A DNA stretch of 64,000 nt from Vulcanimicrobiota bacterium (GTDB lineage Bacteria; Vulcanimicrobiota; Vulcanimicrobiia; Vulcanimicrobiales; Vulcanimicrobiaceae): the NCBI GenBank assembly GCA_963777315.1, contig CAVZQC010000001.1, forward strand, positions 96,001 to 160,000, read 5' to 3'. Below the pieces are notes generated by a model that did no database searches, had not been told where the DNA came from, and saw only the letters and a program-made list of their open reading frames with translations. Shown here piece after piece: positions 20,063 through 41,975 of the stretch. Position numbers and translations under genes: made by a program. How positions within the stretch are numbered: the stretch's first letter is position 1; each line of letters opens with the position of its first letter.

Positions 20063-20500
20063 CTAGGCGACGGCCGCCGGGAGCGCTTCGCGGATGCGCG
20101 CGAGCAGGGTCGCGGTTTCTTCGCGGTGACGCCCGGCTAGAGCGGCGGTGGACGAAAAACCCAAAGCGCGCGCATTCGACTCGAGCATCAGCGCACCGGC
20201 ATGCGCGAGGCTGAGCGCGGCATAGTAGTCGCGCAGCGCCTTGGCGACGGGTTCGGGCGCCCGCTCGTCGGAGCGCAGTTCAACGAGCGCGCTTTCACCG
20301 CCCAAGCGGCGCAAGTGTTCGGTGAGATCGTCGACGTGAGTGCCGAGCGTGCGCACCAGCCGCTCGAGCAGCCCGCGAGTTTCCGGCAACGCCTGAATTT
20401 CGGCCGAACGCAGCTGCGCGGCGACCAAAGCCAGCGTTCGTTGAGTAGCGTTGCGCATATCGGCCACGTACGCGCGCATTTGATGGATGGCATTGCCCAT
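20063..20500 (-). CDS. Ferritin-like four-helix hypothetical protein
   Basis: Helical; 'HVDDLTEHLRRLGG', 'KALRDYYAALSLA'. Confidence 0.55.
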   Translation of the reverse strand: MGNAIHQMRAYVADMRNATQRTLALVAAQLRSAEIQALPETRGLLERLVRTLGTHVDDLTEHLRRLGGESALVELRSDERAPEPVAKALRDYYAALSLAHAGALMLESNARALGFSSTAALAGRHREETATLLARIREALPAAVA

Positions 20501-20584
20501 GTGCGGCACCTCGGTTCATGCAGATTGCCGAAACGGCGGTTGGGCAAACCTTGCCGGCGGGGAACCGGACGCAGTCTTTCGGCC

Positions 20585-21145
20585 CTATCCTTTATAGAAG
20601 CACGCTGCGCACATCTGCACGTAACGCGCCTGGCCCTCGATTGCGATTTGCGCGCCGCTGGTTATCCGATTGCCACGCTCGTCCACGCGCACGTTCATCG
20701 TTGCCTTCTTGCCGCAAGTGCACACGTTCTTGACCTCTTCCAGGCTGTCCGAAAGTGCCAGCAAGTACGCCGCTCCCGGAAACGGCTCGCCGCGGAAGTC
20801 GCTGCGGATTCCATAGCAAATGACCGGGATGGCCAGTACGTGCGCCGCACGGTGAAGATCTCTTACTTGCAGCGGCGTAAGAAATTGGGCCTCGTCGACC
20901 AGTGCGCATGCCAGGTCGCGTTCGCTCTCCAACCGCGTATAAAAGTCGGTCGCTTCGTCGAAGGTTTCCACGCTGCGGCGCGGCCCCAGCCTCGATGCGA
21001 TCACCCCAAAACCCGCGCGCGTATCCAAGGCGGACGTAAAGACCGCCACGCGGCGACCGTGCTCTTCGTAGTTGTGGGCTACCTGCAGCAGAGCGGTCGA
21101 TTTGCCGGCGTTCATTGCCGAATATCGGAAGTAGAGTTTTGCCAC
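20585..21145 (-). CDS. tdk: Thymidine kinase (type II)
   Basis: LYFRYSAMNAGKST, VDEAQFL, CYGIRSDF, CTCG...CAAC; GTG start 21145. Confidence 0.96.
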   Translation of the reverse strand: MAKLYFRYSAMNAGKSTALLQVAHNYEEHGRRVAVFTSALDTRAGFGVIASRLGPRRSVETFDEATDFYTRLESERDLACALVDEAQFLTPLQVRDLHRAAHVLAIPVICYGIRSDFRGEPFPGAAYLLALSDSLEEVKNVCTCGKKATMNVRVDERGNRITSGAQIAIEGQARYVQMCAACFYKG

Positions 21146-21150
21146 CGAGT

Positions 21151-21588
21151 CTAGAGGCGCACCACCAGCACCGGCACGGGCGCGGACCGCACGACGGCTT
21201 CGGCTACGCTCCCCAGCAGCAGCCGCTGAATGCCCGTGCGCCCGTGGCTTCCCATGACGATGAGGTCGGCATTGCATTTTTTACCGAAGGCAACGATGTC
21301 CTCGGCGGGGTAGCCTTCGACGATCTGCGTGTCGATGCTCACGCCCGCTGCTCGCGCGCGTTCGGCGGCCTGCTGCAGCACGTGCTTGGCATCCTCGCGC
21401 AGCGCTTCGAAATACGTTTGAACGACGTCCGCAGATGCAATCGTCATCGACGATGCGGCCCGGATGATGTCCACTACCGTACACGCCGTGCATTGCGCGC
21501 CAAGCGCTTTTGCCAGCGAAGCCGCAGCGTCCAGCGCTTTGGCCGCGCACTCCGAACCGTCAACCGCGACTAAGATATGCTTGAACAT
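21151..21588 (-). CDS. Universal stress protein
   Basis: ILVAVDGS, DLIVMGSHGRTG, LLGSVAE.V. Confidence 0.95.
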   Translation of the reverse strand: MFKHILVAVDGSECAAKALDAAASLAKALGAQCTACTVVDIIRAASSMTIASADVVQTYFEALREDAKHVLQQAAERARAAGVSIDTQIVEGYPAEDIVAFGKKCNADLIVMGSHGRTGIQRLLLGSVAEAVVRSAPVPVLVVRL

Positions 21589-21614
21589 ATTGCCGTTTGC
21601 GGCAATTACTTCTT

Positions 21615-22460
21615 CTACGCAGTTTTACCCGGCTGCCCGGCACCGCTCGCGACGGATGGATGAGGTTGCGGCTCGGGAAACGTTTGTTCGGTCTGAAACG
21701 GCGGCTGCAAGTCGAATTTCCAATCGCCGTGCGATGACACCAAATCAAATCCTGCGGGCTTCTCTTGAGCATTTTTCGCACCGTCGGTCGAATCGTTCAT
21801 GTAGGCGTGCGCGAATTTTTCGGTGCCGGGCAGATTGCCGGGCGGGAAGTTGGGCTCGATGGCGTCGAGCGCCGCTTCGAACATTTTTTGATGCGCGATC
21901 TCGCGGGTCATGAGAAACGTCAGCGTGTCTTTGCAGCCGGCATCGTCGCACTGTTTGATGAGGCGTTCGTATACCATCTTCGCGCGTGCTTCTGCCGCTA
22001 TGTCGGATCGTAAGTCCGCCGTCGGTTGTCCGATCGTGTCGTTATATGCGGCAGTCCACGGAGCGCCCATCGAGTCCGTCAGACGCAGGCCGCTGCCGCC
22101 GCTGAGCAGCGTGGCGCCGCTGCTTAGCGACATCTCGACGAATTTCTCATGATTGCCTTCGAGCAATTCCCCCAGGTAGTTACCCTCGACTTCGTCAATT
22201 TGCGCTCCGGACGTTCCCTTGAGCAGCTGCACGAGCGTTTGGGCCACCATCTCCAAATGCGAAAGTTCTTCGGTCGCGATGTCGAGCAGCATGTCGCGCC
22301 GCTTGACGTCGGATTCCGCCCAGCCTTGAGTAAAGTACCGCATCGCGGCGGCCAATTCGCCGTTGGGGCCGCCGAACTGCTCGAGAAGCATCTTGGCAAA
22401 CTTCGGGTTGGGTTCGTCCACCCGAACCGCATACATCATTCTTTTGTTATGAAGAAACAT
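21615..22460 (-). CDS. Manganese catalase family protein
   Basis: EQFGGPNGELAAAMRY, DIATEELSHLE, DIAAEARA, REIAHQ. Confidence 0.93.
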   Translation of the reverse strand: MFLHNKRMMYAVRVDEPNPKFAKMLLEQFGGPNGELAAAMRYFTQGWAESDVKRRDMLLDIATEELSHLEMVAQTLVQLLKGTSGAQIDEVEGNYLGELLEGNHEKFVEMSLSSGATLLSGGSGLRLTDSMGAPWTAAYNDTIGQPTADLRSDIAAEARAKMVYERLIKQCDDAGCKDTLTFLMTREIAHQKMFEAALDAIEPNFPPGNLPGTEKFAHAYMNDSTDGAKNAQEKPAGFDLVSSHGDWKFDLQPPFQTEQTFPEPQPHPSVASGAGQPGKTA

Positions 22461-22671
22461 TGAACTCCGATTCCTTACAGATGCTCATCATTCCGTTGCC
22501 GGCAGCTGCCCAAACACGCGCGCCGGAATGCGGCGCGCCGGAGCACACAAAAATCGAAAAAAAGGCGTAAGACCGAGCCCGGCTGAGGCAAGCCGACGCC
22601 TGGACGATATGGTCGCAGAGAGCGGCGGCGAATTGCATGCGGACACTTGGTGCCTCGTGAGGTAATCCATC

Positions 22672-24546
22672 GTGAGTTTTGCAAATATTTCCAACGCGCG
22701 CGCACTGGCTGTAGCCACTGCGCTAGGTCTATTGGTCAGCGGCTGCGGCGGTGGAGGCGGCGGGGGCGCTGCGTCCTCATCCGCGCCCGGAGTCCTGCCG
22801 CAAACCGCCGCCCGCGGCACTGCAGAACGGGCGCCCGGAGGAATCCGCAGCGGCATGGTGCGCATCGAAAAAAGCGACGCATCGCCCACAGCCAACGCGC
22901 GTATCGTTCAAACGCACGTCGGCTCTTCGCAGCCTGCAACGGCCGTGCCACCCGTGCCGCGGCCCGACGAACGGCCGTGCATCGTTCAGTTGTTTTCGCA
23001 TTTTCAATTCACGAACTTCACCTACCCGACGTTTCAATACACGCCTCCGTCGGCGTGCCCGGGACCTTGGGCGAAAGTCGTGCTCGACGCCGACTTTAAC
23101 GTAACGGCAGGACGCCAATTCGACCGGACGGCTTCAATTTGGATTGCCGGGACGAACGTCTACTTCGGCACTACGGCGGAACCATCGGCCACCGTCAGTC
23201 CATCTTGGCACGTCGAACGCGACGTGACCGCGCTGAGCGCAATCTTCCGCTCGCCCTCGACGGGCGAGGTCGTGCTGGGCAACATCGTCAACAGCACGTA
23301 CACCGGCATTATTTCGGCCAGCAGCAAACTCGAGTTCTACCCTGCCGGCAGGCGTTATCCGGCTCGAGTCGTCGCGGACGACGTCTATCCTCTCTCGGGC
23401 GGTCCGCTGGGCGACAATCAGTACATCAGCACGCAGCAGCAACCGCTTACGGCAACCTACACGCTGCCCAGAAACATTCGAGCCGCGTATTTGGACGTGT
23501 ACTTGCAGTCGCAGATCGGCGACGAGTTCTGGTACACGTGCTTTCCCAGCGACCTTGCAGCAAAGATCCCGAATTGCGGAAACACGGCGTTTCGTGAAGG
23601 CGACGTCGCCGTTGACGGACAGCCCGCAGGCATATCGCCCGTGTACCCGTGGATCTATACGGGCGGGATCGACCCGTATCTCTGGCGACCGATTCCGGGA
23701 GTCGAAACATTCGACTTTACTCCCTATCGCGTCAATCTGACGCCCTTTGCCGGGATTTTGAGCGACGGACGGCCCCATACGATAACCGTCAACGTGTTCA
23801 ACAACGGCAACTATTTTGCGGCCAACGCGGCGCTGCTGACGTTCCTGGATCACGGATCGTCGCAGGTTACCGGCGGAATCATTCGCAACACGACCTCGTT
23901 GTATCCCAGCCCCAGCGTAACGGAAAACGTGCGGTTCAACGCGCAAGGTTTGGGCGCCGGACCGGTCAGCGTGACCTCGACGCATCCCCTCTATATCGCA
24001 GGGTACGTCAACACGTCTCGGGGTCGCATCGAAACCCAAGTGCGCCAGCGCGTGACCTTCAGCAACATGCAGCAAATATCGGCGAACACCACCGGAACCA
24101 TCTTCGATCAAAACATCAAGCAGCAGACCAACGTGCTGTCCGACACGACCACGCTGGGCCCCGGCTTCCGACGTTACGTTCGTGAAGAGCAGCATTGGCC
24201 GCTGCAGCTGATCTATGACTACAACGTCGCCGCCGACGGCAGCGCCGTGCAAAAGGCTTCGGTGGAGCAAGGCAAGATCGACATTCGAGTTGCCGGCGGC
24301 GACAACGACGAGAACGACGATCGCGGCGAAACGGAAGGCGGCGGATTCCGCTCGTTCCTCTCCAACTTCGTGCAGTCGAGCGACACCCTTACGTTCCCGA
24401 CCACGGGCGGCTACACGCCGTCAGGCGGCGAAAGCAGGCAAATCTACATCAAGGGCAACAATCGCGGATATTGTTATGCCAAGACCGTCATCTCCAAGAA
24501 CTACGTGCTCACCGGGCAGTTCGGGGGATCCTGCTTCGGCCTGTAG
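22672..24546 (+). CDS. Peptide-N4-asparagine amidase (PNGase A / PNGase H+ family) lipoprotein
   Basis: Lipobox LVSG-C; GRQFDR, FGTTAEP, DEFWY, AFRE, WIYTGGIDPYLWRPI, NLTPFAG.LSDG. Confidence 0.88.
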   Translation: MSFANISNARALAVATALGLLVSGCGGGGGGGAASSSAPGVLPQTAARGTAERAPGGIRSGMVRIEKSDASPTANARIVQTHVGSSQPATAVPPVPRPDERPCIVQLFSHFQFTNFTYPTFQYTPPSACPGPWAKVVLDADFNVTAGRQFDRTASIWIAGTNVYFGTTAEPSATVSPSWHVERDVTALSAIFRSPSTGEVVLGNIVNSTYTGIISASSKLEFYPAGRRYPARVVADDVYPLSGGPLGDNQYISTQQQPLTATYTLPRNIRAAYLDVYLQSQIGDEFWYTCFPSDLAAKIPNCGNTAFREGDVAVDGQPAGISPVYPWIYTGGIDPYLWRPIPGVETFDFTPYRVNLTPFAGILSDGRPHTITVNVFNNGNYFAANAALLTFLDHGSSQVTGGIIRNTTSLYPSPSVTENVRFNAQGLGAGPVSVTSTHPLYIAGYVNTSRGRIETQVRQRVTFSNMQQISANTTGTIFDQNIKQQTNVLSDTTTLGPGFRRYVREEQHWPLQLIYDYNVAADGSAVQKASVEQGKIDIRVAGGDNDENDDRGETEGGGFRSFLSNFVQSSDTLTFPTTGGYTPSGGESRQIYIKGNNRGYCYAKTVISKNYVLTGQFGGSCFGL

Positions 24547-24589
24547 GTAAACGGCATGGGCGGTGCCCACCTCTACGGTGCGGCGCCGC

Positions 24590-24724
24590 CCCTGGCCGGC
24601 GGCGACCGGTTGTGGCTGTGCTGTGCGCGGAGTTGTAGAGATCGACTTCGTCGACGACGAGCTCAGTGGGCACGCTGGAAAGATGATAGAGGCGCAGCGC
24701 CGCTCCAAGCAGCACGATTGCAGG
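24590..24724 (-). pseudogene. N-terminal fragment of an ArnT/PMT (GT39/GT83-like) membrane glycosyltransferase
   Basis: LLGAALRLYHLSSVPTELVVDEVDLYNSAHSTATTGR matches the LR...L...P.....DE......A....TGR pattern, then similarity stops. Confidence 0.55.
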
Positions 24725-24725
24725 A

Positions 24726-25727
24726 TTATACTATAAGATGCACGTCCCCGAATTCGTGTTGGTAGTAGCCCAGCCCGGCGGCGTGCGCATAAGCCTGGCC
24801 GATCAATTGGCGGTCGGCAAACGCGCGCAGAATCCATTGATGCGTCGCGCCTGCGTCGTGAAAGCCGGTCAATAAAGCGTTGGGTATCGTTACGCCCCGG
24901 CGTTCGTCGACGACCAGATCGGTCCAACCCGACGCGGCGACGACTTCGCCGCCGTACACGGCGCTTTCCAGCGCGCGAACGACCGTCGTTCCCACGGCGA
25001 CGACGCGCCGCTTTTCGCGTTTGGCCGCATTGATTGCCTGCGCGGCTTGCGGGGATACCGCATATCGCTCCAACGCCGGCAACTCGGGCGCCTCGAAGCT
25101 CGCGACTGCGCAGTGCAGCGTTATCGTCGCTACGCCGACATTGCGTTTACGCAACGCTTCAATTACCCGCTGCGTGAAGGGGCGTCCCGCCGAAGGCATC
25201 TCCGACGAGCCGGGGCTCCGCGCAAACATCGTCTGGTAATCTGCCAGCGGAAAGCGTTCGGCAACGTAGCGGTAGCGAATCGGCTGGCCGAATCGCCCCA
25301 GATACGAATTCATCGCCTCGGGCAGCTGAAACCACGCGTACCATAAGCGGGGGCGTTCGGGCTCGACGGGTGCAATCATTACCGCAGACGCGTTCCCGGG
25401 AAGGCGCAACTCCTCGCCGCCCACGACCTGAGCGCGGGGCTCGGCCGTCCATACCCGCCGGTCGATCATCGTCGACACGTGCAGCGCAAGAGACTTGCCG
25501 TTAGCACGGTGCGCGAGCAGAGCCGCCGGCAACGTTGCGGAATCATTCACGACCAGCAAATCGCCGTCGCGCAGCACGGAGGGCAGCTCCAAGAAATGCC
25601 TATGCGAATGCGTGCGCCCTGCGCGATCGGTCACCAACATTCGCACGCAATCGCGTTCGATGCCGCGAGCCTCCGGCGGCGCGACGGCTTCGCGCAGTGC
25701 AGGTCCGCTTTGCATGGCAGCGCTCAT
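24726..25727 (-). CDS. QueA-like protein (non-canonical S-adenosylmethionine:tRNA ribosyltransferase-isomerase homologue)
   Basis: LVVNDSATLPA, YQTMFA, VVAVGTTVVRALES are QueA-like, but PIRY, SEMPSAGRPF, LTGFH, HEFGD replace canonical PLPPY, VAAPTAGLHF, TNFH, SYGD; ATGA overlap with SDR. Confidence 0.85.
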   Translation of the reverse strand: MSAAMQSGPALREAVAPPEARGIERDCVRMLVTDRAGRTHSHRHFLELPSVLRDGDLLVVNDSATLPAALLAHRANGKSLALHVSTMIDRRVWTAEPRAQVVGGEELRLPGNASAVMIAPVEPERPRLWYAWFQLPEAMNSYLGRFGQPIRYRYVAERFPLADYQTMFARSPGSSEMPSAGRPFTQRVIEALRKRNVGVATITLHCAVASFEAPELPALERYAVSPQAAQAINAAKREKRRVVAVGTTVVRALESAVYGGEVVAASGWTDLVVDERRGVTIPNALLTGFHDAGATHQWILRAFADRQLIGQAYAHAAGLGYYQHEFGDVHLIV

Positions 25728-26452
25728 GCCGGCGACGAGTCCGCTAGCCGAACGCGCTCGTACGGATGCTGCATCGACGCAATGGCGTGCAGCAGGGCGC
25801 GGGCGCAGTCCGCGGGGTCGAGTAATTCTTCGGGATCGGCATCGGGTATGGCGTCGCGGTGCATTTGGGTGTCCATGTCGCCCGGATCTGCGACGAGCAC
25901 GCGCACCGGCGTGCCCTCGAGCTCGGCGGCGAAAACGGCCGATACGTGCTCCAAGGCAGCCTTCGTCGATCCGTAACCGCCCCACGTTGGATACGCCTGC
26001 ACGCCCGCGTCGGACGTGACGTTGACGATCGTACTGATCCCGCCGCCGCGACGCAGGAGCGGCAAAGCGTGCTGCATCAGATGAATCGGCGCGAAAACGT
26101 TCACGTCGAAAAGGCGCCGGAACGTTTGCTGCGTGAGTTCGTCGATGCGCGGGAGCGGCACCTCGCCCAGCGTCGAAGCGTTGTTGACCAGCAGGTCGAG
26201 CCGGCCGAGCTCGTCTGCGGCGGCCACGAGCGCGTGCGCGTGATCTTTGTCCGTTACGTCGCCGGCAATCGCGATGACGTTACCGAATTCCCGAAGTTCG
26301 CTATGCGCCGCGGCGAGCGCAGGTGCGTCACGTCCGTCCACGATCGTCTGCACGCCGCGCCGGAGCAGTTCGCGGGCAATCTGCTTTCCAAGTCCGCGCG
26401 AGCCTCCCGTAACGATGGCGACGTGCCCGGGTTTGAACCAAGAATCATTCAT
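25724..26452 (-). CDS. Short-chain dehydrogenase/reductase
   Basis: TGGSRGLG, NNAS, YGSTK, DPGDMDT. Confidence 0.93.
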   Translation of the reverse strand: MNDSWFKPGHVAIVTGGSRGLGKQIARELLRRGVQTIVDGRDAPALAAAHSELREFGNVIAIAGDVTDKDHAHALVAAADELGRLDLLVNNASTLGEVPLPRIDELTQQTFRRLFDVNVFAPIHLMQHALPLLRRGGGISTIVNVTSDAGVQAYPTWGGYGSTKAALEHVSAVFAAELEGTPVRVLVADPGDMDTQMHRDAIPDADPEELLDPADCARALLHAIASMQHPYERVRLADSSPA

Positions 26453-26461
26453 ATAAGTGCA

Positions 26462-26492
26462 ACTCTACAACCTAAAGTATAGTTGAGGTCAA
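26462..26492 (-). promoter_or_regulatory. SoxR-type promoter: -35 TTGACC, 19-bp spacer containing SoxR box, -10 TAGAGT
   Basis: CCTAAAGTATAGTTGAGG at 26471-26488 resembles CCTCAAGTTAACTTGAGG; -35 at 26492-26487, -10 at 26467-26462. Confidence 0.88.
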
Positions 26493-26496
26493 TATC

Positions 26497-26937
26497 ATGG
26501 CCGATTTGCTGACGGTGGGCGAGATGTCGGCGCGCAGCGGCGTCGCCGTTTCGGCTATCCGCTTTTACGAAGCCAAAGGCCTCATTCACAGCGTTCGCAG
26601 TTCCGGCAACCAGCGCCGTTTTTCACGCTCGGAATTGCGGCGCGTCGCCGTGATCAAGGTCGCTCAGCGGGCCGGCATCGCGCTGGGCGAGATCGGCGAT
26701 GCGCTAGCGACGCTGCCCAGCGGACGCACCGTCTCGGCCAAGGACTGGGCGCGGTTGTCGCTCAGATGGAAGCGGGATTTGCAAGAGCGCATTGCGCGGC
26801 TCACTGCGCTGCGCGATCAATTGGGGGATTGCATCGGATGCGGATGCTTATCCTTGGACAGCTGCCCTTTGCGCAATCCGGGCGATGTACTCGCATCCCA
26901 GGGTCCAGGTCCGCGGCTGCTCGACTTCGAGGATTAG
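26497..26937 (+). CDS. soxR: Redox-sensitive transcriptional activator SoxR
   Basis: MerR HTH ([13 protein letters not shown]), [19 protein letters not shown] [2Fe-2S] motif. Confidence 0.97.
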
Positions 26938-27485
26938 CCCCATTGTGCGATGGTCAGTACGTCGGCTTGGCGCGGGAAGATTTTTTCCAGCAAAACGCGC
27001 TGCACTTCTTCGTCTGCATCCGCGCAGCAATCCGACAGCACGGTCAGCGCATAATCGCGATCCGCGGCTTCGCGCAGCGTCGACAGCACGACTCCGCTGG
27101 TGGCGATCCCGGTCAGGACCAGCGACTCGATCTGCCGTGCTCGCAAAACGACCTCCAAATCGCTTCCGGTAAAGGCCGAGATGCGGCGCTTGACGACGAG
27201 TACGTCGCCTTCCTGTGGGGCGATCGCCGGGTGCACGAGCGCCGCATCCGGATCGGAAAACATCGATCCTCGGGCGGCCATCCCCGCGAAGATCTTATTT
27301 CGAGCGCTGATCTCCGGAAAGCCCGGGCGAAACTGCACCACGACGTAGACGACGAGCAGACCGCCGCTTCGCGCGATCGCGATCGCCTGCGAAATGCGAT
27401 CGAGCAGGCCGCGATTGCCGGCATGGCGCTCCACAATGCCGCGCTGGACGTCCATGATCAGCAGCGCGGTATTCGATCGTTGCAT
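26934..27485 (-). CDS. Isochorismatase-family cysteine hydrolase
   Basis: [29 protein letters not shown]; start could be 27485-27524. Confidence 0.9.
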
Positions 27486-27589
27486 CACGGCTTCTCCATC
27501 AAGAGGGCTGGAGTTAGTCATCACCTATCGGCCGGTTGCCTGTTCCATGCGTGTGACATAATCGTTACATTCACGATGGAGGACGCAAT

Positions 27590-30307
27590 GTGATGCGAAC
27601 GCCGCACATTGCCGCGCCGGCCGGAACGGTGACGTTTCTGTTTACCGACATCGAGGCCTCGAGCCGGCATTGGGATACCGATCATGACGGCATGTCCAAC
27701 GCGCTTCGCCGCCACGACTCCATCGTGCGTGAAGCGCTCAGAGCGCACGGCGGGTATGTGTTTAAAACCGTCGGTGATGCCTTTTGCGCGGCGTTTAAAA
27801 GCGCACCGGACGCAATTGCGGCAGCACTGGACGCCCAGCGCGCCTTAGCAGCGCAGGATTTTGACGACATTGGCGGTCTGCGCGTGCGAATGGCGCTGCA
27901 CAGCGGCGACTGCGAGCACCGCAACGGCGACTACTTCGGCCCCGCGCTCAACCGGACGTCGCGGCTCATGGACATCGCGCACGGCGGCCAAATCGTGCTT
28001 TCGCGCACGACCGCCGATCTCATCGGCGACCGTTTACCACCCGGAACGGCCCTGGCCGACCTGGGCACGCATCGCCTCAAAGACCTGGCTCAGCCCGAAC
28101 ACGTCCAGCAATTGATCTCGCCGGACTTGCGTTCGCAGTTTCCCGCGCTTCGTTCGCTGCAAACGCATCCCAACAATCTCCCTTTTCAACTCACCAGCTT
28201 CATCGGGCGCCAAAACGAAATCGCGCAAGTTCTTTCTCTGCTCGAGGAACGCCGGCTCGTCACGCTCATCGGTTCGGGCGGAGTCGGCAAGACGCGATTG
28301 GCGCTTCACGTCGGAGCAGAGGTGCTGGGCAAGTTTGCAGACGGCGTTTCATTCGTCGATCTCGCTCCGGTGCGCGATCCGCAGTTCGTTCCGTCCGCCG
28401 TCGCAAAGAGTTTGGGCCTGGTGGAGATGGCCGACGTGTCGGTCACGGAGCTGGTTGCCGGATATTTGCGCGAACGCTGCGTGCTTTTGATCCTCGACAA
28501 CTGCGAGCATCTCATCGGAGCCGCAGCCGTCTTGGTGAACGAACTCCTGCGTCGCTGCAAAGACGTGCGGGTTCTGGCAACCTCCCGCGAACCGCTCAAT
28601 ATACCCGGCGAACATTCGCTGCGCGTAGCGTCGCTCCCCGAAGGCGACGCCGTTGCTCTCTTCATCGACCGTGCCACGTCGGTAAATCCCCAGTTCGAGA
28701 CCACTGCAGAAAGCTGCGCCCAGATTGCCGATTTATGCCGGCGCTTGGACGGTATTGCACTGGCAATTGAACTTGCGGCCGCGCGCGCTAAGGTGCTGTC
28801 GGTGGAGCACCTCAACCAAAAGCTGAACGATCGCTTTCGCATTCTCACCATCGGCAGCCGCACGGCGCTGCCGCGGCACCAAACGATGCGCGCACTCATC
28901 GATTGGAGTTACGATCTGCTTGCGCCTACCGAACAAACGTTGTTCCGCCGGTTTTCGGTCTTTGCCAATGGATGGACGTTGCCGCAAGCATGCGCGGTCT
29001 GCGGGTTCGACTTGGAGGAGTGGGACGTCGTCGACGGGCTCGCTTCGCTGGTCGATAAATCCCTGGTCGTTGCCGAAGTTGCCGCGTCAACCGAGCGCTT
29101 CAAGCTGTACGAATCGACGCGCCGCTATGCTCTGGAACGTTTGAACGATAGCGGCGAGCGGGAAACGCTCGAACGCGCGCATGCCGCGGAGTTTGCCGCA
29201 GTGGCCAAACGCAGCGACGAGATCTGGGAAGACACGCCCACTGCCGCGTGGCTCGATCAGCTCCTCCCGGAGGAGGACAATTTCCGCGCCGCACTCCACT
29301 GGACGCTCGAGCAGAAACGGGATGCGGAGCTGGGCGTGCGGCTCGTTTGCTACCTTCCCAGATTTTGGTGGACCGGCGGACGCCAGATCGAGGGAATCCG
29401 CTGGTACGATGCAGCGCTTATAACGGCACAAGTGCGCGAAGCCGACGTTCCCACGATGGCGCGCCTACGTTACGGGCTTGCGGTGATGTATTCGACGACG
29501 CTGATGCGGCGCGACGCGCGTGAAAATGCCGAGCTCGCAGTGACGCTATCCCGAGACAGCGGCGATGCGCTGCTGCTGGGATGGAGCGTGCTGGTGCTGG
29601 GAGTCGCGTGCGCGCTCATGGGCGACCCGCAAGCCGGCCGGAAACATTGCCGGGAAGGCATGGAGATTGCCGGCGGCTTGAACGCCACGCGGCTGATGGC
29701 CTGGCTGAGCTGGGCGCACGCACTCAACGATAGTGTGGCCGGTCAGTTCGACGCTGCGCGGGTCGAGCTGAACGAGCAGCTCGCGGTGTGCAAACGCCTG
29801 GGCGACGATTTGCTTTTAGGCTTCGCGCTGATTTTTTTGGGCATCGTCGAGCTCGGCACCGGAAACGGCCAGCGTTCGCTGGAGTGCACGCGCGAGGCGC
29901 TGGAACTCTACCGCCAAAAAGGCGACCGCGTGGGGTTGGCGCTGGCCTGGTCGAACATCGCGCCGGCTTATCTGGTTCTCGGGCAGATCGACGACGTACG
30001 GGAAGCGGCCCGCGAGGCGCTGTCCTATGCGCGGGACACGCACAATTCACGCTTAATCGTGATTGCGCTCGAGTATCTGGCAGCCGCCGCACTCCAACGG
30101 CCTACGGCGGCGGCATGCCTGTTGGGATTTTGCGATGCATGGTATGCAACTTCGGCCACGCCGCGCGATCTGACCGAACAGCAAACTCAGCGCCGCACGC
30201 TCGAGGGCTTGCGCGCTGCATTGCCGGGTGCGGAGCTGCAGACTTCACTGGAAGCCGGCGCGAGAATGACGCAAGCGCAGGCCATCGAAACGGCGCTGCA
30301 GAGGTAA
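27590..30307 (+). CDS. Class III adenylate/guanylate cyclase - STAND ATPase - TPR protein
   Basis: FLFTDIEAS, KTVGDAF, RMALHSG, YFGPALNR; GSGGVGKTRLA, LILDNCEH, LDGIALAIELAAA; helical repeats; GGAGG RBS. Confidence 0.9.
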   Translation: MMRTPHIAAPAGTVTFLFTDIEASSRHWDTDHDGMSNALRRHDSIVREALRAHGGYVFKTVGDAFCAAFKSAPDAIAAALDAQRALAAQDFDDIGGLRVRMALHSGDCEHRNGDYFGPALNRTSRLMDIAHGGQIVLSRTTADLIGDRLPPGTALADLGTHRLKDLAQPEHVQQLISPDLRSQFPALRSLQTHPNNLPFQLTSFIGRQNEIAQVLSLLEERRLVTLIGSGGVGKTRLALHVGAEVLGKFADGVSFVDLAPVRDPQFVPSAVAKSLGLVEMADVSVTELVAGYLRERCVLLILDNCEHLIGAAAVLVNELLRRCKDVRVLATSREPLNIPGEHSLRVASLPEGDAVALFIDRATSVNPQFETTAESCAQIADLCRRLDGIALAIELAAARAKVLSVEHLNQKLNDRFRILTIGSRTALPRHQTMRALIDWSYDLLAPTEQTLFRRFSVFANGWTLPQACAVCGFDLEEWDVVDGLASLVDKSLVVAEVAASTERFKLYESTRRYALERLNDSGERETLERAHAAEFAAVAKRSDEIWEDTPTAAWLDQLLPEEDNFRAALHWTLEQKRDAELGVRLVCYLPRFWWTGGRQIEGIRWYDAALITAQVREADVPTMARLRYGLAVMYSTTLMRRDARENAELAVTLSRDSGDALLLGWSVLVLGVACALMGDPQAGRKHCREGMEIAGGLNATRLMAWLSWAHALNDSVAGQFDAARVELNEQLAVCKRLGDDLLLGFALIFLGIVELGTGNGQRSLECTREALELYRQKGDRVGLALAWSNIAPAYLVLGQIDDVREAAREALSYARDTHNSRLIVIALEYLAAAALQRPTAAACLLGFCDAWYATSATPRDLTEQQTQRRTLEGLRAALPGAELQTSLEAGARMTQAQAIETALQR

Positions 30308-30683: not shown

Positions 30684-32510
30684 TTACTTTGCATTTCGCC
30701 AGGACCACAGCGGAACGACCAAGAGGGGATCCTTGCCCGTGACTGTCGTCGTCCAGACATATTCCGCCGGCAAAGGATTGCAGTCCGAGTACACGCGGTA
30801 CCCATGGGAAGCATTCCATGCGAGCGACGTGTGGCTCGGGCGAACCGGTTTGAAGCCGGTACTTTGCGCGAGCGGATAGGTTTGCGCGCGCGCAACCGCA
30901 AGCACCGCATCGTCAAGCGCTGTGTTTCCGCTCGCGGTTACGAGAGACGCATTCGTCACCGAACCGGCGGAGTTGACCTGTACGCGCACCGATGCGCTCA
31001 AAGTCGAGCGTGCCGGGATAGCTTCCAGTGACGCTGGGAGCGCCGGAACAGCGGAGTGAAGCAGATTCGGCACCTTGCATGCCTTTGGGTGCGCTGCGCT
31101 CCACCCGACGGGATACGCTGGATCGACCGCGGACAGCGTCTGATGCCGAGGCCCACCAGGCTGCCCTACGTAGGCTCCCATTCGCACCGTCGATGATGTG
31201 GCATGGCAATCGCGCAGAGCCGGCTCATAGGTTGCGCCCATGAAGCTGCGCACGATTCCTTCCCGAACTCCCGGATAAGACGGCGCCGACACAATGACGA
31301 CTTTACGCGCGGTTCCCGCGGCATCCACCGTGAGGTCGACGCTCGCAAAGTGTTGCGCGCCGACCCGTCGAGCAAGTTCACCAGGCTTGGCGGGTCCGAC
31401 CCAGAGGCGTTCGACGCTGTTCGTGTGATCGATTTCCATAAGCGACCGAATACTGCGATTGGGCGTAGTACAACCGCTTGCAGCTTGAATGGACTGCGGC
31501 GACGGCGGCGCATAGGCGAGTACCGGCGAAATCGATTGCAGAACAATCCCGGTGAGCGCGAACGTCAGGAGCGCACCGCTAATGGCCGAAGGCGAAAGGC
31601 GAAGACGGCGGGGCCGAGCATCCAGGAGATGCTCGATCCGCGCGACGACGGAGTGACGCGAACCGATCGCGCTCGGAGCGGCGAGTGATGGGCGCGCGCC
31701 GGCGCAGCTCGCCATTGCCGCTAAAGCCCGGGCGAACACGTCGCCGGCGCCGAGTCTGGCGACGACCCAATCATCGCATGCAATCTCGCGTTCCGTCGCA
31801 ACTCGGCGCAGCACCAACCACGCAATCGGATTGAGGGTAACCAGCGCTTCGAGCACGCGCGCAAGTGCATTCGTCCAAACGTCGTTTCGCCGCAGGTGCG
31901 CGGATTCGTGCATAATGATGGCGCTCACCGCGTCATCCGGCTCTTCTTGCACAATCGACGTCGGTAGGACGATTGCCGGCCGAAGAAAGCCGAGCGCAAG
32001 CGGGACAGCCACGCGATGCGAGAGCGAAACGGGATAATCGTGGGTAGACGACCACGGCCTCGATTCGCGCCTAATCACCGCAAGATCGCGCAGGTTTTTT
32101 AGTAATAGGATGATACGCGCGCACGCTGCCAGCAGCCAAACGAGCGCCACAACCAGCGCAAGACTTTGCGAGACCGTAATGCGTGGAGCGTGCGGCGTTT
32201 CAACCGGATACGCGTCCGGCAGTTCAACGCCGGACACATTGGCGCGGATCACGGCAACGGACGCATCAGTCGACGTCGTGACCGGCGGCGGGGCCGAAAG
32301 CTGCGGCGACGCGGGCACGAGCACCGTAGCAACCGGAACCAGTACGAGCGCCGACAGCGCGCACAGCCAAATTGCATAGCGCGTTGCAGCGCCGACTTGC
32401 GGCATGCACCGCAGACCCAGCCATACGAGGCCCACGATGAGTGCGCCCTCCCACAGACTATCGAACAACGCGCCGGAAACGGCAAGTGCAGCCTGCATCA
32501 GCGTGTTCAT
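30684..32510 (-). CDS. M56 (BlaR1-type) metallopeptidase sensor with TonB-C-like extracytoplasmic domains
   Basis: RYAIW, GFLRPAIVLP, HESAHLRRND, EREIACD; 'VQVNSAGSV...SGN.ALDDA'. Confidence 0.88.
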   Translation of the reverse strand: MNTLMQAALAVSGALFDSLWEGALIVGLVWLGLRCMPQVGAATRYAIWLCALSALVLVPVATVLVPASPQLSAPPPVTTSTDASVAVIRANVSGVELPDAYPVETPHAPRITVSQSLALVVALVWLLAACARIILLLKNLRDLAVIRRESRPWSSTHDYPVSLSHRVAVPLALGFLRPAIVLPTSIVQEEPDDAVSAIIMHESAHLRRNDVWTNALARVLEALVTLNPIAWLVLRRVATEREIACDDWVVARLGAGDVFARALAAMASCAGARPSLAAPSAIGSRHSVVARIEHLLDARPRRLRLSPSAISGALLTFALTGIVLQSISPVLAYAPPSPQSIQAASGCTTPNRSIRSLMEIDHTNSVERLWVGPAKPGELARRVGAQHFASVDLTVDAAGTARKVVIVSAPSYPGVREGIVRSFMGATYEPALRDCHATSSTVRMGAYVGQPGGPRHQTLSAVDPAYPVGWSAAHPKACKVPNLLHSAVPALPASLEAIPARSTLSASVRVQVNSAGSVTNASLVTASGNTALDDAVLAVARAQTYPLAQSTGFKPVRPSHTSLAWNASHGYRVYSDCNPLPAEYVWTTTVTGKDPLLVVPLWSWRNAK

Positions 32511-32896
32511 TACTTACGCCCTCGGGGTCGGCGTTCGAGCAGTTCGCGAATCGCTTTGCGATCGGCTTCGCGCAGCGGGACGTCGTCGAGCAACGTTAAG
32601 GCCAGCGCGTTCGGCGAATTCTTGAAGAACCGCGCCATTACATGGCTGACTGCGGACTGCGCTGCCTCGCTGCGATCGATGAGGGGGCGATAGGTAAAGG
32701 CGCGCCCCGTCTCCTTATGTCCGACATAGCCCTTCTGCTCGAGCGTACGCATCGTCGAAAGAACGGTATTGTAGGCCAACGGCGGCGGCAGCAATGCCGC
32801 CGTTACTTCAGAAACGGTGGCCTGCCCCTTGGCCCAAAGGATTTCCATCAGGCGCAACTCGTGGTCGGTCAGCACCAGCGCTTTCTTCCGCGGCAT
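32510..32896 (-). CDS. BlaI/MecI/CopY-family repressor
   Basis: LTDHELRLMEILW, LAYNTVLSTMRTLEQKGYV, GRAFTYRP. Confidence 0.93.
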   Translation of the reverse strand: MPRKKALVLTDHELRLMEILWAKGQATVSEVTAALLPPPLAYNTVLSTMRTLEQKGYVGHKETGRAFTYRPLIDRSEAAQSAVSHVMARFFKNSPNALALTLLDDVPLREADRKAIRELLERRPRGRK

Positions 32897-40818: not shown

Positions 40819-41136
40819 ATGGGCAAAAAGCGTCCGCACTCCTACCCGCCGGACTTCCGGCATAAAGTTCTTGAACTGCTGCGTACCGGTCGCCGCATAG
40901 ATGAGTTGGCCGCCGAATTCGAGCTTGCACCACAAACGATTCGCAATTGGGAAAAGCAGGTCGATCTCGATACTGGCAAGCGCACCGACGGATTGACCAG
41001 CGAAGAACGAGCAGAACTCTCGAAACTTCGACGTGAAAACAAGCGACTCACGATCGAGAATGAAATCTTGTCAAAAGCCGCGGCCTGGTTTGCTCGGGAG
41101 ACCGACGTGATCCCCAAGAAATCTTCCGACTCGTGA
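40819..41136 (+). CDS. IS3 transposase OrfA
   Basis: YPPDFR, HTH (QTIRNW), coiled coil, ENEILSKAAAWFA. Confidence 0.93.
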   Translation: MGKKRPHSYPPDFRHKVLELLRTGRRIDELAAEFELAPQTIRNWEKQVDLDTGKRTDGLTSEERAELSKLRRENKRLTIENEILSKAAAWFARETDVIPKKSSDS

Positions 41137-41975
41137 AGAGCTACCAGGCCAAATTCCACATTTCCACGATGTGCCGGGTTCTGGAGGTCTCCGCCAGCGG
41201 GTACTATGCGTGGCTCAATCGTCCACCGTCAGCGCAAGCGCGGCGCGACATTGAACTTGGTGATCGCATCGAGGCAATTCATCGACGCTCTCGCAACACG
41301 TACGGTCGACCACGCATCAAGGCCGAGTTGAAAGACGAGGGCATTACCCTGAGCAACGACCGACTTGCGCGACTCATGAACGAGCGAAATCTCGTAGGCG
41401 CAAGCCGCCGTAAGGGCGTTCGGACGACCGTGCGTGATCGAGATGCTCGACCCGCACCGGATCTTGTCGATCGAAAATTCATCGCTAACGCACCAGACAA
41501 ACTGTGGGTTGCTGATATCACGTACATCCCAACCTACGCCGGGTTCTTGTTTCTTGCAGTCGTTCTCGACGCGTTTAGCCGCCGAATCGTCGGCTATGCA
41601 ATGAGCTCGAACATGCGCACGCAACTTGTACTCGATGCGCTCAACATGGCGATTGAACGTCGTAGGCCCGAAAGCGTCATTCATCATTCCGATCAAGGAA
41701 CGCAATACACCTCGATTGCTTTCGGATCTCGGTGCCGGGAAGCTGGAGTTCGTCCGTCGATGGGTTCAGTTGGTGATTGCTACGACAACGCGATGTGCGA
41801 GAGCTTCAATGCGACGCTCGAATGCGAACTACTCGATCGGAACCGGTTCCGCACGCATAAGGAAGCCGAACTTGCTATCTTCGACTTCATCGAGGGCTGG
41901 TACAATCGGCATCGTCGCCACTCAGCTCTGGGCTACCGCTCTCCCGCCGCATATGAGCGGGAAACCGCGGCGTGA
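41133..41975 (+). CDS. IS3 transposase OrfB (DDE integrase core)
   Basis: SGYYAW, YGRPRI, WVADITY, HSDQGTQY, DNAMCESF, WYNRHRRHSALGY. Confidence 0.95.
   Translation: MKSYQAKFHISTMCRVLEVSASGYYAWLNRPPSAQARRDIELGDRIEAIHRRSRNTYGRPRIKAELKDEGITLSNDRLARLMNERNLVGASRRKGVRTTVRDRDARPAPDLVDRKFIANAPDKLWVADITYIPTYAGFLFLAVVLDAFSRRIVGYAMSSNMRTQLVLDALNMAIERRRPESVIHHSDQGTQYTSIAFGSRCREAGVRPSMGSVGDCYDNAMCESFNATLECELLDRNRFRTHKEAELAIFDFIEGWYNRHRRHSALGYRSPAAYERETAA

Follow-up and report, generated by a model that had tools for sequence, protein, structure and literature searches.

An apparently undescribed pair of a short-chain dehydrogenase and a QueA-fold paralogue, predicted to be under SoxR control, as a candidate redox-stress system

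Within a stretch of DNA from a Vulcanimicrobiota bacterium (assembly GCA_963777315.1, contig CAVZQC010000001.1, positions 96,001 to 160,000; the whole 64-kb stretch is called the window below), we studied three genes and the promoter region between two of them. The gene for the redox sensor SoxR stands back-to-back with a gene for a short-chain dehydrogenase/reductase (SDR), and the gap between them is 44 bp (26453-26496). The TGA of the SDR gene overlaps the ATG of a gene for a QueA-like protein (ATGA). The features are listed here by window position, with protein lengths in amino acids (aa):

24726..25727, minus strand: QueA-fold paralogue of the HEFGD family, 333 aa (PF02547, 219 bits; possible alternative start at 25715)
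25724..26452, minus strand: classical SDR, 242 aa (TGGSRGLG, N118, S147-D148, Y160-x3-K164; R19 and R41)
26462..26467, minus strand: -10 hexamer TAGAGT of the promoter predicted for the SDR gene, with 19 nt between it and the -35 (from the sequence)
26471..26488, no strand: SoxR box, an 18-bp imperfect palindrome between the -35 and -10 of the SDR promoter (matrix score 40.9 bits; same site in relatives)
26478..26483, plus strand: possible -10 TATAGT of soxR itself, inside the box (sequence only)
26487..26492, minus strand: -35 hexamer TTGACC of the promoter predicted for the SDR gene (from the sequence)
26497..26937, plus strand: soxR, MerR-family [2Fe-2S] redox sensor, 146 aa (TIGR01950, 220 bits against a cut-off of 117)

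Read on the minus strand, the gap contains TTGACC, 19 nt, TAGAGT, 9 nt, and the ATG of the SDR gene. A first-pass annotation of this DNA had described a soxR with an intact Cys motif divergent from an SDR gene that is ATGA-coupled to a queA homologue, a SoxR box inside this promoter with the ATG 9 nt after the -10, and the replacement of canonical motifs in the QueA homologue. The first two descriptions can be read directly from the sequence, and the third agrees with both the sequence and the alignments described below.

The regulatory side of the locus is the clearest. SoxR and other MerR-family activators work on promoters with a 19-bp spacer, and here the box lies between a -35 and a -10 with exactly that spacing, an architecture kept in relatives. 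A promoter scan with spacers of 16 to 18 nt returned nothing at the gap, as expected for a 19-nt spacer. The box differs at 1 of 12 arm bases from what we take to be the E. coli soxS box. The protein itself has an intact C-x2-C-x-C-x5-C cluster and, together with its TIGR01950 score, this places it in the SoxR family; the spacing is that of the SoxR cluster as given in the accessible part of PMC4601167. It was the only MerR_1 match in the genome, which is 90% complete.

We scored the 2.83-Mb genome with a matrix of 34 distinct sites from other loci. These are close relatives, so a high score for the window site was expected, and the informative part is the absence of a second site. The window site scored 40.9 bits, its reverse reading 16.2, and the best unrelated site 13.4, while the top score in five block-shuffled genomes was 15.4 bits. 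Thus, this genome has no strong SoxR site other than the window box. The -35 reads TTGAC[C/T/A] or TTAACT in 34 of 34 matrix sites, as the search pattern demanded, and the ATG follows the -10 by 6 to 10 nt in 29 of them. With its ATG 9 nt after the -10, the SDR-QueA-like mRNA is predicted to be leaderless or nearly so. The possible -10 within the box also predicts autorepression of soxR, by analogy with what we take to be the case in E. coli. A terminator scan found one weak terminator-like site, inside soxR, which scored below the shuffle mean, and an Rfam search of 22000-29000 gave no match. The first-pass annotation had proposed SoxR control, and the promoter architecture, the unique site, and conservation in three phyla speak for it; we regard it as highly likely that SoxR controls the operon here.

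This predicted control can be followed across 201 genomes from the same phylum, in which family presence was read at rows of at least 165 bits. The HEFGD family occurs in 54 of the 201 and soxR in 33. Gene coordinates place 31 of the 33 soxR genes next to the SDR-QueA-like pair; at the other two (G191 and G195; L178:2531-3379 and L179:2331-3188), the box precedes a gene for an NmrA-like NAD(P)-binding protein. A strict box pattern, which misses weak boxes, matched once in 31 of the soxR genomes, twice in one, and not at all in one. It also matched once in one genome without soxR, and a reversed control pattern had zero matches. All 33 soxR genomes belong to one family and are not independent. 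Within this lineage, SoxR probably controls little besides the SDR-QueA-like operon. Single extra box matches away from the pair were seen in G093 (L180:2464) and G200 (L181:2895), and no soxR was found in G200. In two loci, L182 (G192) and L015, the QueA paralogue is split in two frames, either through an error in the assembly or because the gene is a pseudogene. Between soxR and the SDR gene, L015 carries in addition a 108-aa gene without a Pfam match.

The first enzyme of the pair has the features of a classical SDR of the NADP(H) type: a TGxxxGxG motif, the N-S-Y-K tetrad, and basic residues in the Gly loop and after beta-2. In an alignment of 85 sequences, S147, Y160, and K164 were invariant, R41 was present in 84, and position 19 was R or K in 72. 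By the usual basic-residue rule, R19 and R41 predict NADP(H) as the cofactor. The substrate-loop residues D148, Y154, and W157 were also invariant (85/85). The best solved relatives of the SDR profile include YciK-type SDRs, yeast YIR035C, and sepiapterin reductase (E 1e-46 to 1e-35). YIR035C and sepiapterin reductase have diketone and quinone activity. Sepiapterin/benzil reductase is among the profile matches, where YciK-type and other proteins score equal or higher, and no NCBIfam SDR family reaches its own cut-off for the window protein.

The SDR and QueA-like genes stay together almost without exception. The SDR gene lies directly upstream in all 22 close loci with upstream DNA, in 77 of 78 loci from a broad scan (in the remaining locus, two inserted genes separate it from the QueA-like gene), and in all 80 loci of a proteobacterial and acidobacterial branch. 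Full SDR-QueA fusions make up 2 of 150 listed representatives (P0208 and P0230), one of them from Streptomyces. No third gene is constant beside the pair in the broad scan or in the proteobacterial and acidobacterial loci, and some genomes have glyoxalase/VOC, luciferase-domain, and NIPSNAP genes inserted within the operon. What is conserved as a unit is the SDR and QueA-like pair. The functional coupling of the two proteins, suggested from the single locus, is supported by this near-universal adjacency and the fusions.

The second protein of the pair has the fold of QueA. An AlphaFold 2 (AF2) model (pLDDT 95, pTM 0.93) matched 1wdi at a Foldseek E of 3.5e-23, with a VIA Z of 27.7 and an rmsd of 9.2 over 275 aligned residues. 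Nothing besides QueA rose above background in the fold searches, whose other rows matched the beta-barrel only at Z 6 or less, and an ESM Atlas search gave PF02547 clusters only. The protein falls short of the QueA equivalog cut-offs (TIGR00113, 130 vs 267 bits; NF001140, 168 vs 324 bits). The motifs P[LI]PPY, A[AS]PTA[GS]LHF, and TNFH occur in 20, 16, and 21 of 21 canonical proteins and in none of 90 family members, whereas HEFGD occurs in 90 of 90 family members and in none of the 21 canonical proteins. Most of the 90 were found through the pattern EM[PA]SA[GA]R, so that motif's own count (88/90) is circular.

Residues conserved specifically in the family include H83, E96, E176, R182, H205, E212, E215, H296, H324, and E325. 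Among conserved charged columns, QueA has 14 basic, 9 acidic, and 4 His positions, compared with 9, 14, and 7 in the HEFGD family. Position 212, which changes from R to E, is one example of a basic position of QueA that is not kept. In addition, the family has an acidic loop following residue 205 that is some seven residues shorter than in QueA. From these differences we infer that the core that processes S-adenosylmethionine (SAM) has been kept and that the RNA-facing surface has been rebuilt for a small acceptor.

The QueA-like protein appears to be separate from queuosine synthesis. The first-pass annotation had noted that no tgt or other que gene lies in the window, which holds by gene calls and needs to be qualified for the genome. 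Contig C4 carries a canonical queA (410 bits; PLPPY, VAAPTASLHF, TNFH, FSFGD), contig C2 carries tgt, and queG likewise lies on a contig other than the window's; the window gene is therefore a paralogue, in a genome whose late queuosine pathway is complete. The suggested search for a separate canonical queA and tgt thus found both. In this 90%-complete genome, QueF was not found and the matches to QueC were all weak, which fits preQ1 salvage. We also built the proposed QueA phylogeny, a quick IQ-TREE tree of 111 proteins with SH-aLRT support, a midpoint root, and no bootstrap, in which a Rhizobium pair sits on a long branch. A branch with 99% SH-aLRT support has all 21 canonical QueA proteins on one side, and the HEFGD family stands apart.

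Carriers of the family outside Eremiobacterota were then surveyed for tgt. We used 50 of 67 carriers, leaving out 17 on short contigs; genome completeness is not given. No tgt was found in 28 of the 50, of which 10 are cultured isolates, and none of these 28 shows a canonical queA. Canonical queA was found in 14 carriers (11 over the cut-off, one broken), all of them among the 22 with tgt and mostly adjoining it, and 8 carriers have tgt without canonical queA. G248 among the 50, and G117 and G167 among the 201 genomes above, are flagged as unpublished, and no conclusion rests on them. Three findings support the conclusion, drawn earlier from the locus itself, that the QueA-like protein is not the queuosine enzyme: a canonical queA elsewhere in this genome, the position of the family on a branch apart, and the many carriers in which no tgt was found.

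The pair extends far beyond this phylum. We estimate from 6 of 64 parts that the family motif occurs in about 6,700 stretches of species-representative genomes, and its phyla are Eremiobacterota, Actinomycetota, Chloroflexota, Deinococcota, Acidobacteriota, Gemmatimonadota, and Pseudomonadota. Many soil bacteria carry the SDR-QueA-like pair. The triplet with soxR was found at 9 loci in Actinomycetota and also in Alphaproteobacteria, including Rhizobium etli p42f (RHE_RS29355-29345 in CFN42) and a plasmid of R. bangladeshense, both with about 31% identity. In the branch that includes Rhizobium, soxR is present at 31 and the box at 37 of 74 loci. Eight loci (L147, L156, L217, L235, L237, L239, L245, and L255) have a SoxR-type box before the SDR gene but show no soxR in the DNA that was fetched, suggesting that they are controlled in trans. 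We regard a further 29 loci on viral contigs (27-31% identity) as, for the most part, canonical queA genes at the edges of prophages.

The regulator beside the pair varies. At the 72 broad-scan loci with enough flank, we found soxR at 15, a GAF-domain kinase with a NarL-type regulator at 28, and a SufR-like regulator at 8; SufR-like regulators also occur at 21 of 80 loci of the proteobacterial and acidobacterial branch. A GAF-domain C-x-C-x14-19-C motif is present in 10 of the 28 kinases when read in frame; a six-frame pattern gave off-frame false positives (15/28), and the in-frame count was used. A strict DosS/T-like segment was found in 10 kinases, and one tested kinase was closest to the haem GAF structures of DosT/DevS (E 2e-29). 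The SufR-like proteins match TIGR02702 at E 1e-26 to 1e-36, below its cut-off. Cys-rich SufR-like regulators stand beside the pair in Acidobacteriota and Acidimicrobiia (L260-L290, L092-L144), and no suf genes were noticed in the fetched flanks. The SoxR, SufR-like, AirS-like, and DosS/T-like regulators are all predicted to be iron-cofactor sensors.

On the tree, the soxR label changes five times, and at least four of these changes are forced by well-supported branches, so regulators have been swapped repeatedly. The survey of neighborhoods suggested in the first-pass annotation thus found the SDR linkage near-universal and the soxR triplet not constant, with SoxR as one of four interchangeable regulators. 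The same system probably exists in Streptomyces coelicolor. The accessible text of PMC4932002 lists SCO1804 as QueA. With an unnamed NarL-type pair at SCO1801/1802 and a dehydrogenase homologue at SCO1803, the layout of SCO1801-1804 matches a Streptomyces purpureus locus (L134), and SCO1804 is judged here by that layout.

Based on these observations, we propose a mechanism for the pair. Oxidation of the [2Fe-2S] cluster of SoxR would switch on the 19-bp-spacer promoter, as in MerR/SoxR biology, giving a near-leaderless bicistronic mRNA, and SoxR would probably repress its own gene. The SDR would reduce a carbonyl of the quinone or diketone type with NADPH, and the QueA paralogue would move the ribose of SAM, as a five-carbon (C5) unit, onto an N or O nucleophile. 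The acceptor would sit in a predicted new pocket rich in acidic and His residues (E176, H205, E212, E215, H296, H324, and E325). C5 capping of the reduced compound would block its re-oxidation and end redox cycling. We propose this capping step because of the analogy with QueA, which transfers the ribose of SAM to the preQ1 amine, making an epoxycyclopentanediol (according to the accessible part of PMC5699537). The two enzymes likely act in sequence, in either order, on a small molecule rather than tRNA, and we think it quite likely that the pair has a small-molecule substrate.

The neutralization of a redox-cycling compound by SAM-dependent C5 transfer and NADPH-dependent carbonyl reduction, under SoxR, is the account we tentatively prefer. 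The oxidoreductases among SoxR targets elsewhere and the inserted glyoxalase, luciferase-domain, and NIPSNAP genes are in its favor. Several observations weigh on the other side. The invariant SDR pocket suggests one fixed substrate, not varied xenobiotics. SAM binding is predicted from the fold and the conserved residues, and none of the three QueA structures among the matches carries a ligand. At 21 of the 72 broad-scan loci, none of the regulators named above is nearby. No transporter is constant in the unit across the broad-scan neighborhoods, unlike in known SoxR regulons. The models for the DosS/T-, AirS-, and SufR-like regulators sense O2, nitric oxide (NO), and Fe-S status more than a drug. 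Since many carriers have regulators of this type, an endogenous substrate fits at least as well, and together with the invariant pocket and the lack of a constant transporter, they favor either endogenous repair or carbocycle synthesis.

The first of these would be metabolite damage control, in which the pair would act on a single endogenous metabolite, repairing it or disposing of it as it accumulates upon oxidation or nitrosylation of Fe-S or haem proteins. Candidates are damaged SAM, a SAM by-product, or an oxidised nucleoside or cofactor. Four unrelated types of predicted iron-cofactor sensor flanking the pair, the fixed SDR pocket, and the lack of a constant transporter speak for it, as does a MetE-like gene that precedes the SDR gene in 9 Inquilinus-type loci. 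However, SAM-cycle genes are not general neighbors and the MetE link is confined to one lineage, the patchy occurrence of the pair (54/201 phylum genomes) would be odd for housekeeping repair, and non-enteric SoxR answers redox-active compounds. We consider this explanation somewhat unlikely, and the strongest of the alternatives to neutralization.

In the second, the paralogue would use SAM to build a protective or signalling (epoxy)cyclopentitol onto a common acceptor, with the SDR completing the product. QueA does make an epoxycyclopentanediol from the ribose of SAM (again from the available text of PMC5699537), and an SDR whose substrate is its partner's product would explain both the invariant pocket and the fusions. 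No acceptor-supplying, tailoring, or export gene is constant nearby, however, and we consider such biosynthesis improbable.

Readings that involve RNA fit worst. In favor of Tgt-independent RNA modification or repair of oxidised RNA, the fold is otherwise known only from a tRNA enzyme, both domains of QueA are retained, and queuosine loss alters the oxidative-stress resistance of E. coli (accessible part of PMC9508795). But the family has lost or reversed basic positions that QueA conserves, as at 212, in addition to the shorter, acidic loop; no translation or RNA gene recurs nearby; and the obligate partner is a small-molecule reductase. We rate this a shade below carbocycle synthesis, and the repair of oxidised RNA offered in the first-pass annotation found no support. 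A stress-induced QueA isozyme making epoxyqueuosine-tRNA, suggested by database labels, the tgt and queG of this genome, and the listing of SCO1804 as QueA (in the accessible text of PMC4932002), is barely credible given the absence of canonical motifs in all 90 family members, the scores below equivalog cut-offs, the separate branch, the canonical queA already present, and the 28 of 50 carriers, 10 of them cultured isolates, in which tgt was not found.

Among the genes around the operon in the window, neither the isochorismatase-family gene nor the PNGase A-like gene recurs beside the pair in relatives. The latter (22672-24546, plus strand) encodes a secreted, lipoprotein-like PNGase A homologue (PF12222) and is convergent with the operon. 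A stress-type cluster 2 kb from the operon (20063-22460, minus strand) encodes a Mn-catalase (PF05067), a universal-stress-protein-like protein, a thymidine kinase, and a 145-aa protein without a Pfam match; it was not seen beside the operon in relatives. Further along are a 905-aa protein with adenylate/guanylate cyclase, NB-ARC, and TPR parts (27590-30307, plus strand) and, judged by eye, a BlaI-like protein (128 aa) paired with a BlaR1/M56-like protein (608 aa) that has an unusual C-terminal part (30684-32896, minus strand). Two overlapping open reading frames resembling an IS3-family transposase (40819-41975, plus strand) are followed by about 1.2 kb without a gene call.

We conclude that the SDR-QueA-like system is real, conserved, and apparently undescribed, with known parts and well-supported regulation. 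No description of the HEFGD family or of a link between SoxR and queA was found in the open literature, though subscription papers or supplementary regulon tables may mention it. As a more tentative proposal still, the HEFGD family may be a second, tRNA-independent use of QueA's SAM-ribose-to-carbocycle chemistry. It would form, with an NADPH reductase, a two-enzyme redox-stress module repeatedly wired to four types of Fe-S or haem sensor and essentially the sole SoxR output in one family of Eremiobacterota/Vulcanimicrobiota. The product would be a cyclopentitol joined to either a redox-active compound or a metabolite that has been damaged. The conversion of SAM ribose to an epoxy-cyclopentyl group by QueA is known for one substrate; if our proposal is true, it adds a new SAM-dependent small-molecule reaction and a new output of SoxR regulons outside enterics. 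It also has a practical side: databases name the family QueA, so queuosine reconstructions that count queA by family may miscount it, as is possible with COG0809 (PMC10570037) and with IPR003699 in a Bartonella preprint (bioRxiv 10.1101/2023.12.05.570228), to judge from the accessible parts of both.

Four known systems provide points of comparison. With QueA (PF02547, TIGR00113; PDB 1WDI, 1VKY, 1YY3), the paralogue shares the fold with its inserted beta-barrel, 24-33% identity, and residues that include N61, Y164-Q165, the T of YQT, P178, A180, E220, G246-T247-T248, R251, E254, H290, and G327-D328. It differs in replacing PLPPY, AAPTAGLHF, TNFH, and the FS(Y/F)GD end in all 90 family members examined, in being linked to an SDR rather than tgt, in adjoining stress sensors, and in occurring where tgt was not found. 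The window SDR shares the N-S-Y-K tetrad, a W before the catalytic Y, and basic residues of the NADP(H) type with the branch of YciK, YIR035C (Irc24), and sepiapterin reductase (PDB 4Z0T, 3F1K, 3KZV, 1NAS), and differs from it by its own invariants S147-D148-A149, Y154, and D189-P190.

The kinases beside the pair resemble those of AirS-AirR and DosS/DosT-DosR in combining GAF and HisKA_3 domains with a NarL-type regulator. Their C-x-C-x14-19-C motif recalls the Cys-x7-Cys-x-Cys-x17-Cys of AirS (as given in the accessible text of PMC4601167), and an HP-x-M-x2-FLG segment aligns to GAF-A of DosT/DevS, whereas they differ from AirS and DosS in having one GAF domain and usually three Cys instead of four. 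Non-enteric SoxR, finally, answers redox-active compounds (PMC7674942 and PMC4601167, accessible parts), and it is known to control small oxidoreductases, a monooxygenase, and a transporter (available text of PMC7674942 and PMC4146615). Like the regulons described there, such as that of S. coelicolor (SCO1178, SCO1909, SCO2478, SCO4266, SCO7008), the one predicted here is small, includes an oxidoreductase, and combines a SoxR with an intact Cys motif and a box in the target promoter. The S. coelicolor target list in the accessible part of PMC7674942 has no QueA-fold member, and, unlike in S. coelicolor, the predicted regulon here is a single operon without a transporter or monooxygenase.

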